Made by a program: the position numbers and the translations under genes. A stretch of 64,000 bases of DNA from Octopus vulgaris (taxonomy: Eukaryota): NCBI GenBank assembly GCA_951406725.2, contig OX597818.1:94798001-94862000 (forward strand), written 5' to 3'. The notes under the pieces were generated by a model, which was not told the DNA's origin, did no database searches, and saw only the letters and a list, made by a program, of their open reading frames with translations. Positions 20,545-62,306 of this stretch are shown piece after piece. Every line of letters begins with the position of its first letter. Within the stretch, counting starts at the first letter, position 1.

Positions 20545-20619
20545 GGAGTACACAACAGGTTAGTAACAATGGCCAGTCACAAGGAACACCACCTCCCACA
20601 CCCAGCTTTACTGCTGCAG
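20545..20619 (+). CDS. Candidate cassette exon (75 nt, phase 1-1): (G)STQQVSNNGQSQGTPPPTPSFTAA
   Basis: The acceptor is gttatgtttcatcccctag| and the donor is CAG|gtaatt. The length is a multiple of 3, the frame is open and the peptide is low-complexity and linker-like. Confidence 0.65.
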
Positions 20620-29839: not shown

Positions 29840-29941
29840 GTACCCCAACGGTGCAGACTGTTGCAGAAAGCAGTCCTAAACCTGCTGCCCTTGGCTCAGC
29901 AAGTTTATTTGTTGCTGCTGTTGCTTCAGCATCAGCCTCAG
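29840..29941 (+). CDS. Candidate cassette exon (102 nt, phase 1-1): (G)TPTVQTVAESSPKPAALGSASLFVAAVASASAS
   Basis: There is a branch-like ctaat, then the acceptor tggctcgtccctgctctag|, and the donor CAG|gtaaat. The exon is symmetric and open, and is a GC-richer island in AT-rich non-repeat DNA. Confidence 0.7.
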
Positions 29942-45083: not shown

Positions 45084-45185
45084 CTGCCTCCAGTGGAAGT
45101 TCAGGTAACAGTTCAGTGGGTGGCTCTTCTCAAACTATATTATCTGCTGAAAAACAATCTTCTCAACCAGGGGTCTTAGAGCCAG
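45084..45185 (+). CDS. Candidate cassette exon (102 nt, phase 1-1): (A)ASSGSSGNSSVGGSSQTILSAEKQSSQPGVLEP
   Basis: The acceptor is ccattttattgtcattactgtgtag| and the donor is CAG|gtatgt. The exon is symmetric and open, with a Ser/Gly-rich linker-like peptide. Confidence 0.7.
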
Positions 45186-50679: not shown

Positions 50680-51585
50680 CATCATCATCATTATCATCAT
50701 TTAACATCTGCTTTCCACACTGGCATGGGTTGGACAGTTTGACTGAGGGCTGGCAAGCCAGAAGGCTGCTCCAGGCTCCAATCCAATCTGGCAGAGTTTC
50801 TACAGCTAGATGCCCTTCCTATCACCAACCACTCCAAGAGTGTAGTAGGTGCTTTTTATGTGCCACCGGCATGGGACCAGTCAGCTAGCACTCGCATTGA
50901 CCATGCTCAAATGGTGCTTTTTACATGCCACAAGCACAGATGCCAATCAGGCAGTACTGTCATCGGCCATGACAACAACTTCACTTGCCTCAGCAGGTCT
51001 TCGCAAGCACAGTTTATTGCCCAATGACTGAAGAATACTCTTAAATGGGCTGGTTATGCTGCCCTGGTATAGGCCACGGTTACTGACTCACTTGGCTTGC
51101 TGGGTCTTCTCAAGCACAACGTATCTGTAAAAGTCTCAGTCACTTGTCATTGCCTCTGTGAGGCCCAACATTTGAAGCTCATGTCTCGGGGCACTTAAAC
51201 TTTGTCGTATATGCACACAGACATTACACATCCATCAGAGCATACTAGCTTCGTTCTTTGCAAGCTTATGCATGTCCTCAGCAGTCACAGCCCATGTTTC
51301 ACTGCCATGTAGCATGGCTGTTCACATACATGCATCATACAGTCTATCTTTTACCCTGAGCGAGAGGCCCTTTGTCACCAGTAGAGGTGAGAGCTCTCTG
51401 AACTTTGCCCAAGCTATTCTTATTCTAGCTGTCACACATTCAGAGCATCCACCCCACTACGGACTTGGTCACCTAGGTAACGGAAGCTATCAACTACTTG
51501 TAGTTTTTTCCTCCTGGAATGTGACAGAAACTGTTTTCTGCACATTTTCATTGTGTATTACCCCTGAGCATTTGCCACAGACAAA
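50680..51585 (-). mobile_element. 5'-truncated RTE-clade LINE fragment with 3' UTR and (GAT)n tail
   Basis: The minus strand reads VVDSFRYLGDQ...VTARIRIAWAKFRELSPLLVTKGLSLRVKDRLYDAC..AMLHGSETWAVTAEDM, typical of the RTE RT C-terminus. It is followed by a 3' end shared with other copies in the window. Confidence 0.8.
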
Positions 51586-54147: not shown

Positions 54148-55372
54148 TCAGGTCATTAAAAATTAAATGTCCAATTTTGAACTGAAAGTTTATTTTAATT
54201 TATCTCAGCAAAAAACAGTGCAGTTAATCAAAGTATGAACCTAAATTATCGACACAGTTTTGCCATTTTACCGGTAGCTTATTTATGCCAACAGCAAAGA
54301 ATTCTGGAGAGCAAGAGGTGATGAAATTACAAAAGGCTGCTTTTGTATTTTCTTCAGATTTGAAGTTTTTTCCTTGCAAAAAGTTGTCTGATGCCTGGAA
54401 AAAGTGATAGTCAATTGGTGCAAGGTCTGGTGAATATGGTGGATGACAGAATACTTCCAAATTCAGTTCTTGTAACCTGAGTAGCGTTCTTTGTGCAACA
54501 TGTGGTTGAGTATTGTCTTGCAAGAGAATTGGCTTGTTTCCATTGACCAATCTCGGTTGTTTAATTGCAAGCTCCCTCATCATTTCATCCAGTTGGTTGA
54601 TGTATACATCCACTGTAATTGACTTACCAGGTCTCATGAAGCTGTAGTGGATGACACCAGTGCTGGACCACCAAGCAAACACCATTAGCTTTTTTGGTGA
54701 ATATTCTTTTTTGGATTGTGTTTTGGCACTTCGCCGTTATCCAACCACCATGCAGAATCCATTTCTCAACACACGTAACAATACCATACAAAAATGGTTC
54801 GCTTTTATGCCATGAGAGCAAAGAACAGCAAGTTTCAAGATGACAAGTCATTTAATGCTCATTCAGTTGGTGTCGTACCCACTTGTCCAGCTTCTTTACC
54901 TTGCTGATTTGTTTCAGATGATCCAATACAATTGGAATTGAAACAGCAAACCTTGCTGCTAACTGACAAGTAGTTTGAGATGTATCCACTTCTACTACAG
55001 TTTCCAGCTCATCATTATCCACCTTGGTCTCAGGTCTACCATGGGGCTGATTTTCAAGAGTAAAGTCACCAGACTGGAACTTCTCAAACCATCAACGTAC
55101 AGTGCATTCATTGGCCACATCTTCACCAAACACTTCATTGATGTTTTGAGCTGTCTGGGATGCATTGGTTCCACAATGAAACTCATATTTGATCTATCCA
55201 TGGGTTCACAAAAACTGATTTACAAGAGAAAACTCACCATATAATCAGATATGGAAAATGATGTAACTCTTCAGTGTTGTAAAACAAAGAATTGTCAGGA
55301 TAAAACATTGTAGTTAACGATTGTCAAACTTGGTGCATAAGAAAATTGGACATTTCATTCTTAATGACCTGA
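54148..55372 (-). mobile_element. Mariner (Tc1/mariner, DD34D) DNA transposon, full length but decayed
   Basis: Imperfect TIRs of about 31 bp: tcaggtcattaaaaattaaatgtccaatttt (54148-54178) and aaaattggacatttcattcttaatgacctga (55342-55372), the latter followed by TA. The internal transposase frames carry LLQDN..PH and HPPYSPDLAPIDYHFF. Confidence 0.93.
54224..55201 (-). pseudogene. Frameshifted mariner transposase
   Basis: The C-terminal 153-aa frame (54224-54685) carries the YSPDLAP motif. An IVTCVEKWI segment lies in another frame (54624-54851) and the N-terminal part is broken. Confidence 0.88.
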
Positions 55373-56667: not shown

Positions 56668-56673
56668 TATAAA
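56668..56673 (+). promoter_or_regulatory. Candidate TATA box of an internal promoter
   Basis: cTATAAAt is directly preceded by an E-box-like CACCTG. It is followed by about 170 nt of relatively GC-rich, ATG-free sequence ending at an ATG in strong context. Confidence 0.45.
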
Positions 56674-56844
56674 TCCAGGGTGGCTGCTAGAGTCTTCTAC
56701 CACCTGCCATCATTGCTACTGTGCCACAGTCGGTAGCAGTTACTGTCGGTGGCATTTGCTTTTGTTTCGTATCATTGGAAGCTACCATAGCCATTACTTC
56801 TGCACTGCACGCCACACCATTCTAGGCCAAGGCTAATAATCACG

Positions 56845-56866
56845 ATGGGGGCTTCTGTTGCAAAAG
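56845..56866 (+). CDS. Candidate alternative first coding exon MGASVAK|(G), N-myristoylation-type leader
   Basis: This is the first ATG after the TATA box, in context acgATGG (A at -3, G at +4). It ends AAG|gtactg in phase 1, in frame with exon 59145. Confidence 0.55.
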
Positions 56867-58463
56867 GTACTGCTACTCCCTTTTTCTTCAGTCTTAAACT
56901 TACCTCTCCAAGACTCCTCACTTTCTCTCACACACACATATACACTCACTCACGCATGTGCTCACTCACATAAATTTTATATTAAAAAAACATTAAAAAA
57001 GTGTGTGTAAAGTCTGTTACATATAGGTAACTAAACTTTTAAACACATTCACTCATATATAGACACACATGCACACATACACACACATGCATATTCTTTA
57101 CAAAATCAATTGCATGTTATCAAAATTCTGCCTTAACAGTTGTGAGAATCAATTATTGCTGTCATGACCCAAATATGTTCACAACCCAAGATACCTTTTA
57201 TTAATTGATCCAAATGACATTAGCTTTCTTCTTTCTCATTTATTCAAATGGAGCTTTCAAATTAAATTACTATTTGTATGTTATCTAAATAATTTGGGAC
57301 CTTAAACCTTTAATAGTCAATCCAACCCTGCCAGGCCTTGCTGGCTTGTTATATCTCATAGTAGCAAAACTTCCTTGATAATCACATCATTCTGTATAAA
57401 TACTTCAACATCACTAACAGCACTGATGTTATTAATACTAAGGTGTTAAACTTTAAGCAAGACACACTAACAATTCTAATCTATATAAATACACTTCTAT
57501 ATCACCATTAGTATTATAAATACCATATTATTAAACCATATACAAGTCACATCACTTTATATATACACCAACATATCTAACACCATCACTGCAATAAATA
57601 GTGAAGTGTTAAATCTTAAGCACTCTGCTTTATAAGTATATGTACCAATATATCTAAAACATTCAGTATTATGGATATAGTGTTCAGCCTTAAGGAAGGC
57701 ACACCATACTACATAAATTCACCAGAATATCTATCAATATAAATATTGTGAATACTAACTACTTAAATCAGTATTTCTGTGTTGTATTTGTTTTCCAACT
57801 AAACATTTACTATGTATTTACTTTGCCAAAGGATAAAATTTTATTTCCACTGTGTATTTTGTATCAAGTGTGTGTGTTGGAAGTGAAAGGTGTATGTGAG
57901 CATATAATGAGTGCATGTGTGTATATGTATTAGAATGTGAGGAAAATGTGAAGTATTTGTGTATATGTAGGAGGGGTGCATGTATGTATGTATATGTGTG
58001 AGTGAGAGAATGTATGAGTGTGTAGAAAGGTGTATCAATGAAATTTGGGTTATGTGAGATGATGTATGAGATGTGCACATGTGTATAACTATTGTGTGTG
58101 TATGTGTGTGTGTATTTAATAAACATGCTCAGAGGAAGAAGGAATGAAGAGAGATGTGGGAAGAAGAGAGAGATTATACTGGTAAATACACAAGATAATG
58201 GGAGACAACTTTAATTTTTATCTTACCCTCTAGAAATGCTCCAAGTGTTTATCTTAGCTGCTGTGTTTCCGTTGTTTTGCAGTTTGAACTTACTACACGT
58301 GGAGTTTACAGTGAACTGCATGTAACAATGCAGTGACCTCATATAACTTTTGGTGACCATGTATAACATGTATAATGAAGCTATCTGCCACTGGCAAACC
58401 TTTATATACAAATTATGTCCTGTGTTGTTCTCTTTGGTATAAAGGTTTCTATAATTGTGGAGA

Positions 58464-58539
58464 ATGCTGATTCATGTTTTGTCTTTGTTGTTGTCCATCA
58501 TACTAAACTGTCAACAGCCCTGTTCATTTAACTTCAACT
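58464..58539 (+). CDS. Candidate alternative first coding exon with hydrophobic leader MLIHVLSLLLSIILNCQQPCSFNFN|(C)
   Basis: The ATG has A at -3. There are 25 open codons, then GTAAGT at 58540 in phase 1, in frame with exon 59145. Confidence 0.45.
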
Positions 58540-58592
58540 GTAAGTTACTGCATCACTAGTTCAGAGTTAATTCCTCCCATAGTAAAAGCTAC

Positions 58593-58689
58593 ATGATCCA
58601 TAGGATCAGCATTCATGACAGCTGTTTTGAAAAAAGATTAGTCTCTAGACCTGATAGTAAGTATCAATACTATTGGTACATGGAATCAG
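58593..58689 (+). CDS. Candidate alternative leader MIHRISIHDSCFEKRLVSRPD|(S) (donor 58657) or extended ...SKYQYYWYMES|(G) (donor 58690)
   Basis: Same frame as ATG 58464. There are two further GTAAGT donors (58657, and a perfect CAG|GTAAGT at 58690), both in phase 1. Confidence 0.45.
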
Positions 58690-59144
58690 GTAAGTTGTCC
58701 CTTACCACCCTCCCCGACTCAATTATATATTAGGAATATGTTGTATATCTTTCCGCTCCCCGTCCCTTTCACTGTCTTCTGCCATCTTGACCACTTCATC
58801 TCTTCCCTTTTTTAACCGCTCTACCTTGGACCGTTATCCTCAAACCTTACACATGTCATTCATAGTCAAACAAGCAACCAAATCACCCATGCCTCTATAT
58901 TTTATGAATATTTTAACTGATCTCCATGTCATAACTGTGTCATGTCATGACTACACCTTGTCACAAGTGTCTGAAGTCATAATCAGCCAAATCACAAGCA
59001 TAATATTCTGTTGCCATGGTCACCACCTCATACTTCTAATTACAAGTGATATTCTATTGTACAGTATCTTTTCAGCCTCAATGTAATTTTGTTCATTTTG
59101 AAATTTGCTAGAATTGGCACTCAAATTTCTTTTCTCTATTTCAG

Positions 59145-59228
59145 GTCGTAGCTTGGTGGCAAAGAAAAACGATGGTATTAAAGAATCCACAGATAGCAGT
59201 GCTACACTGGAAGATGAAGACACTAAAA
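59145..59228 (+). CDS. CaMKII: CaMKII internal coding exon: conserved linker segment immediately N-terminal to the association (hub) domain
   Basis: The acceptor is ...tttcttttctctatttcag| and the donor is AAA|gtaatg. The exon is 84 nt, phase 1-1, and reads (G)RSLVAKKNDGIKESTDSSATLEDEDTK. It matches the CaMKII linker as I recall it (vertebrate alpha: [30 protein letters not shown]; delta: [28 protein letters not shown]). Confidence 0.93.
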
Positions 59229-61900: not shown

Positions 61901-62306
61901 TACTCTGTATCTCTGTTGTATAATCATAGCTGCAAACTACACTCTGAAGTTGTTGACACCTCCAAACTTTCTTGGATTTTATACAATATTCTGTTCCCAC
62001 TGTACACCACATTAGTCTTTTCCATAACATCATTCTCATAATATGAGAGTTGTGATAACATAATAACCACATTTAATTATAGCTATTTATTATTTCTCCT
62101 CCACAAAAATGTAGGTAAAATGGATAGTGAGAGTAAGTAGAAACTTAGTTTCTTTTATAATCCATAACTAAAATTTGTTATTTTTAATATATTGCTAGCT
62201 CATGTTTCTTTCTGACTCCATCTCAATGTTATGTTTAATGTGTGGCCTATATTCCTTGCTTGATTTATCTGGAGTTGTCTAAACATTCAGTTCATATTTT
62301 ATCAAT

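Follow-up and report, generated by a model that had tools for sequence, protein, structure and literature searches.

Candidate first exons for kinase-less hub subunits within a CaMKII gene of Octopus vulgaris

Four phase-1 splice donors of an octopus CaMKII gene, located in the 2.3 kb that precede its linker exon, probably end alternative first exons that would give rise to hub subunits without a kinase domain. According to the model that best accommodates the results, internal promoters would produce short transcripts whose first exons are spliced to the acceptor at position 59145. The most upstream of these exons (exon A) has a spliced counterpart in a cephalopod protein (P0241), whereas the remaining three donors (donors 1–3) would be alternatives to each other within another first-exon region, in which donor 3 is the most likely one to be used as the 5′ splice site.

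The predicted products comprise approximately 166–195 amino acids if linker cassettes are not included (i.e., a leader plus the 163 amino acids that follow the leader in P0241). They would lack both the kinase and the calmodulin-binding segments and retain the entire hub. Because the hub is kept, the short products would be able to enter holoenzymes; judging from the intact hub and the analogy to alphaKAP, their co-assembly with full-length CaMKII should dilute the kinase domains. A membrane-binding leader, where present, would relocate the holoenzymes, and their targeting would then depend on the leader.

Host gene, linker exon, and annotated cassettes

The window, by which we mean the entire stretch of 64,000 nt that was analyzed (G000:C5:94798001-94862000, with G000 denoting the octopus genome), lies inside the CaMKII gene, which is encoded on the plus strand. 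The exon map places the end of the regulatory-segment exon 18.4 kb upstream of the window and the first hub exon 32 kb downstream. The exon that ends with the residues RNFS stops 12.9 kb upstream of the window with a phase-1 donor and is separated from the linker exon by an intron of 72,056 nt. The linker exon itself (Table 1) is identical to that in named Octopus proteins.

In the annotated Octopus isoforms, the linker of this CaMKII gene is heavily alternatively spliced. Symmetric cassettes, whose mapped starts are at window coordinates −12102, 20545, 29840, 45084, 62115, 73049, and 83733, are inserted on both sides of the linker exon in annotated full-length isoforms. Like the candidate first exons, the annotated cassettes (RefSeq models of O. 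sinensis and O. bimaculoides) are in phase 1 and use a common acceptor; unlike the candidate first exons, they are internal, symmetric, and retained in full-length kinases. None of the annotated cassettes maps to 58464–58689 or 56845–56866, and internal use of the region 58464–58689 is absent from all 37 named full-length Octopus isoforms examined.

Several other features were observed in and near the window. A phase-1 GTAAGT with an ATG-started frame of 11 amino acids lies near G000:C5:94873013 on the plus strand, between the linker cassettes and the hub, and is possibly a further first exon or a chance occurrence. Broken frames on the minus strand at window positions 54855–55193 resemble a fragment of a mariner-type transposase, and those at 51238–51557 on the same strand resemble a fragment of a LINE reverse transcriptase.

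Table 1. Features of the CaMKII gene in and near the window. Positions are window coordinates unless indicated otherwise; donor scores are based on a matrix trained with 12 of the gene's own donors, a small set that is rich in GTAAGT.
Feature	Position	Strand	Remarks
Annotated linker cassette exon, 75 nt	20545..20619	+	Mapped from annotated isoforms
Annotated linker cassette exon, 102 nt	29840..29941	+	Mapped from annotated isoforms
Annotated linker cassette exon, 102 nt	45084..45185	+	Mapped from annotated isoforms
TATA-like box	56668..56675	+	31 nt upstream of pyrimidine-purine step 56698-56699 (candidate start); weak alone
Candidate first exon A	56699..56866	+	49% GC; no ATG before 56845; 5′ end putative
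Exon A donor (AAG/GTACTG)	56867..56872	+	5.7 bits, top 3.3% of window GT sites
TATA-like box	58438..58445	+	26 nt upstream of ATG 58464
Leader 1 frame	58464..58539	+	25 aa + one base; residues 1–14 hydrophobic, remainder polar and including two Cys
Candidate donor 1 (ACT/GTAAGT)	58540..58545	+	Phase 1; 8.7 bits, top 0.6% of window GT sites
In-frame TAG between leader 1 and leader 2/3 frame	58557..58559	+	
Leader 2 frame	58593..58656	+	21 aa + one base; hydrophilic
Candidate donor 2 (ATA/GTAAGT)	58657..58662	+	Phase 1; 8.9 bits, top 0.6% of window GT sites
Leader 3 frame	58593..58689	+	32 aa (ATG 58593) or 3 aa, MES (ATG 58680), + one base
Candidate donor 3 (CAG/GTAAGT)	58690..58695	+	Phase 1; strongest of donors 1-3; 14.2 bits, top 0.03% of window GT sites
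CaMKII linker exon (RSLVAKKNDGIKESTDSSATLEDEDTK)	59145..59228	+	Phase 1 at either end; shared acceptor at 59145
Annotated linker microexon, 18 nt (SKMDSE)	62115..62132	+	GTAAGT donor at 62133; used in annotated octopus isoforms
Linker microexon, 9 nt	near G000:C5:94785898-94785906		GTAAGT donor; used in annotated octopus isoforms

Exon A and its counterpart in a cephalopod protein

Exon A, which lies outside the coordinates covered by the initial annotation and is unannotated in octopus, is the best-supported first exon of the intron, ahead of those ending at donors 1–3. Its coding part (56845–56866) specifies MGASVAK plus one base and ends in phase 1. The evidence comes from P0241, a contig-derived cephalopod protein of 170 amino acids that is continuous across the linker and hub exons. 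The hub of P0241 shows no difference from a Sepia model across 134 amino acids, and its linker and hub are 97% identical to those of octopus. At the linker junction, P0241 has the N-terminus MGASYPK, followed by GRSLV, which agrees with exon A in five of the seven leader residues, in the position of the junction, and in the phase. The leader of P0241 thus corresponds to 56845–56866 and not to donors 1–3.

The pattern of exon A is unique in the 72,056-nt intron, where it would be expected 3e-5 times by chance, a generous figure since the pattern was derived from the two sequences. There is no open in-frame upstream acceptor that would turn exon A into a cassette. P0241, like the proteins P0121 and P0122 (see below), is a single automatic model that was examined at the protein level. 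Exon A is likely a real first exon that the initial annotation missed, and the pair suggests that kinase-less transcripts of cephalopods start at the end of this intron. Of the original proposal, the host gene, the linker junction, and the formation of kinase-less products by way of first exons within the intron are supported. The same case documents that the annotation of octopus can miss such first exons.

The TATA-like box upstream of exon A is weak evidence when taken alone because the motif TATAAA occurs at a frequency of 0.94 per kb in the window. The consensus for N-myristoylation comprises a Met-Gly start and a small residue at position 6. The Ala in this position of the octopus exon fits the consensus; the Pro of P0241 does not. 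The Met-Gly start and the basic residues that follow it suggest that the leader encoded by exon A may be myristoylated.

The donor cluster and alternative explanations

The three GTAAGT motifs that the initial annotation had pointed out on the plus strand are present as claimed. All of them are candidate phase-1 donors in the frame common to the ATGs at 58464, 58593, and 58680, and only the TAG interrupts this frame between leader 1 and the part further downstream. The proposed third product would start at the Met at 58593 or 58680. Leader 1 has the proposed length of 25 amino acids, but its hydrophobicity reaches only through the first 14 residues. Like the donor of exon A, each of donors 1–3 ends an open, ATG-started frame in a phase that is compatible with the acceptor of the linker exon.

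A non-random cluster of strong donors in the same frame, 455–605 nt upstream of the linker exon, argues for first exons. The plus strand of the window contains 11 GTAAGT motifs. When these were placed uniformly (200,000 placements), three of them fell within 150 nt in 0.26% of the cases and did so in the same frame in 0.023%. Because the cluster was chosen after the fact and roughly 10–20 same-frame triples are expected by chance across the 2.8-Gb genome (by simple arithmetic), the position of the donors before the acceptor weighs as much as their number. A last exon base other than G in front of GTAAGT is normal among the donors of this gene. If the donor region is read as a phase-1 cassette, none of the well-scoring acceptors gives an open frame.

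It is rather unlikely that only exon A is real and that donors 1–3 are unused intronic look-alikes. Annotated donors account for only 5 of the 24 other GTAAGT motifs on the plus strand of a 124-kb region, which leaves 19 that are not annotated as such, and a phase-1 ATG frame is found by chance at 31% of the GT sites. The GC content of 58464–58689 (35–38%) is intron-like compared to that of exon A, the leaders are absent from the database proteins examined, and the after-the-fact selection of the cluster points in the same direction. By contrast, the probability of a same-frame triple within 150 nt is only 2e-4 per window strand, an order-4 Markov simulation of 6 Mb produced no such cluster, and the donors occur in the required phase just before the acceptor that exon A would use.

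The preferred explanation of donors 1–3 as ends of first exons overlaps with the proposal of a translated leader 1 that would anchor the hub in a membrane in the manner of alphaKAP, a role that we consider unlikely for this leader. Leader 1 shares the length of 25 amino acids and the Cys at the junction with the leader of the annelid protein P0122, and its 14-residue hydropathy is among the top 4.3% of the 438 open ATG frames of the window. Over 19 residues, however, its best hydropathy is 1.51, a value reached by 32% of the same frames, whereas that of seven vertebrate alphaKAP-type leaders is 2.38–2.82. The alphaKAP-like anchor that the initial annotation proposed for leader 1 is not borne out by profile comparisons. 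Against two profiles of alphaKAP leaders (from 9 and 39 vertebrate sequences), leader 1 scored 1.5 and 2.3 bits, which is no better than its own shuffles (964 of 2000 and 1794 of 5000, respectively, scored at least as high); it ranked 94th of 649 in a comparison led by the annelid leader. In a global alignment, leader 1 does not align with the leader of P0122 and scores worse than 99% of the shuffles. In addition, the usual spacing between a TATA box and the start site implies that the TATA-like box at 58438, if used, could place the start site just after ATG 58464. If leader 1 is made, a short signal or a Cys-lipidated segment would describe it better than a membrane span.

The start codons of the leaders would face competition from two out-of-frame ATGs (58474 and 58615) and from seven others further upstream, in 58236–58415. 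The frame of leaders 1–3 holds 7 of the 12 ATGs in 58201–58690. A hydrophobic ORF of 29 amino acids (58236–58325, plus strand) is located in the same frame and ends in a stop; it was rejected as a further leader, as it has neither a good phase-1 donor nor similarity to alphaKAP. A repeat origin of the exons was likewise rejected, since both the 341-nt region of the donor cluster and the region of exon A are single-copy in the octopus genome. The comparison of the two leaders did not support an origin of leader 2 by duplication of leader 1, with 11% of the shuffles scoring as high.

It is quite improbable that the donors belong to internal cassette exons of a poison or non-coding type, which would be spliced from upstream and lead to nonsense-mediated decay. 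Such exons would be in line with the heavy alternative splicing of the linker and with the presence of acceptors at 58283, 58445, and 58234 that rank in the top 3–5% of the AGs in the window; when tried as phase-1 cassettes, 58445 and the nearby 58583 give early stops. However, poison cassettes would not require that all three donors are in phase 1 of ATG-started frames, and the AG at 58516–58517 suggested as the 3′ splice site is poor, with 54% of the window AGs scoring as high.

Least credible is the speculation that A-to-I editing of the UAG at 58557–58559 fuses leader 1 with leaders 2/3 to a 75-amino-acid N-terminus: the frames are split by a single stop, UAG is a favored ADAR context, and coleoids edit heavily, but the region folds no more stably than its shuffles (z −0.75; 18 of 100 fold as well), the consensus donor 1 would have to be skipped, a start upstream of 58464 would be needed, and a protein search (133–2000 aa only) with the leader frame read through the stop as X matched none of 21 candidates.

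Proteins carrying leaders 1–3 were not encountered among the cephalopod matches and cluster members examined, but their absence is weak evidence against the first exons because exon A is also unannotated in octopus. A metagenome scan returned 80 loci, none of which was identical to cephalopods, and no counterpart of the octopus leaders was recognizable upstream of the linker exon in ten genomic metagenome loci. The 139 matches obtained in a profile search of 1.84 billion representatives comprised vertebrate leaders and intron read-through ORFs, among which no mollusc leader was recognized.

Kinase-less CaMKII models in other animals and comparison with alphaKAP

Kinase-less models with a leader at the same linker junction are present also in other invertebrates. 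The annelid Paralvinella palmiformis (P0122; KAK2169412.1) has a leader of 25 hydrophobic amino acids plus Cys, and the bivalve Dreissena (P0121) has a Cys-rich leader of 20 amino acids; both were found among the best 120 of 1493 matches, and their leaders are inconsistent with intron read-through. Read-through demands a codon starting with G for the residue before the linker exon, which was the case in 71 of the 71 rows counted; P0122 must therefore be spliced because its Cys codon does not start with G. The leader of P0122 (residues 1–26 with the Cys) has a 19-residue hydropathy of 2.93 and resembles alphaKAP (with the first profile, none of 2000 shuffles scored as high; with the second, 14 of 5000), a likeness that hints at an origin of alphaKAP before the vertebrates. 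A search of the ESM Atlas with P0122 yielded only clusters of CaMKII hubs, and the full-text literature covered, which excludes most subscription papers and also the original reports on alphaKAP, contained no report of kinase-less CaMKII isoforms in molluscs or annelids.

Other models were of a different kind. Kinase-less CaMKII models of the bivalve Argopecten (P0055, P0056, and P0082) carry a long acidic N-terminus that is joined one exon earlier. Two gastropod models with the N-termini MWS-G (P0123) and MSK-G (P0124) were set aside as support for the MES-G of octopus: S-G is compatible with intron read-through, and K-G is found at the end of known microexons as well. The short models of O. 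bimaculoides (P0068, P0069, P0118, and P0240) start at an internal Met downstream of the linker exon and are uninformative with respect to leaders.

It is conceivable, though as yet tentative, that kinase-less, membrane-targeting hub subunits of CaMKII are a recurrent and perhaps ancestral device of bilaterians rather than an invention of vertebrates, with an alphaKAP-like membrane leader in an annelid, a Cys-rich leader in a bivalve, and a Met-Gly leader in cephalopods. The octopus gene would then have as many as five N-termini to choose from (exon A, leaders 1 and 2, and the long and short versions of leader 3), which would address holoenzymes to different compartments. If so, the kinase-less subunits of invertebrates would make the alphaKAP-type design a general way to tune and place the holoenzyme, and unannotated isoforms would be added to a learning-related kinase in cephalopods.

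AlphaKAP, a non-kinase product of the vertebrate gene CAMK2A, originates from an alternative promoter, retains the association domain, and heteromultimerizes with the full-length kinase (PMC5882894, PMC9913510). It is described as an atypical product of a single vertebrate gene, with roles in placing CaMKII at muscle membranes and in stabilizing acetylcholine receptors (PMC9913510, PMC7916148). Database proteins give its leader a length of 25 amino acids, in agreement with the initial annotation. The vertebrate leader seems to be unspliced: in several ORFs (P0248, P0255, and P0256), it runs straight into the linker exon before the ORF leaves the CaMKII sequence, and the two appear to be contiguous in genomic DNA. 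In octopus, the corresponding read-through frame contains a stop and no ATG.

The leaders of octopus, by contrast, would be spliced and are several in number and unrelated in sequence to those of alphaKAP, which have longer hydrophobic stretches with an F/L-V-P motif. Since the hydropathy of leader 1 falls short of a membrane-spanning N-terminal segment, its sequence lacks homology to alphaKAP leaders, and the genomic layout differs, the octopus starts are not classed as alphaKAP; they are alphaKAP-like in architecture and not shown to be members of the group. The common architecture comprises a kinase-less product with a complete association domain, which is predicted in octopus from the frames and the exon map and represented as a protein only by P0241, the counterpart of exon A. 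Compared with alphaKAP (PMC5882894, PMC9913510; proteins P0133 and P0176), the likeness predicted for the octopus products extends to a start inside the intron that follows the RNFS exon, a junction at the beginning of the linker, and the full association domain.
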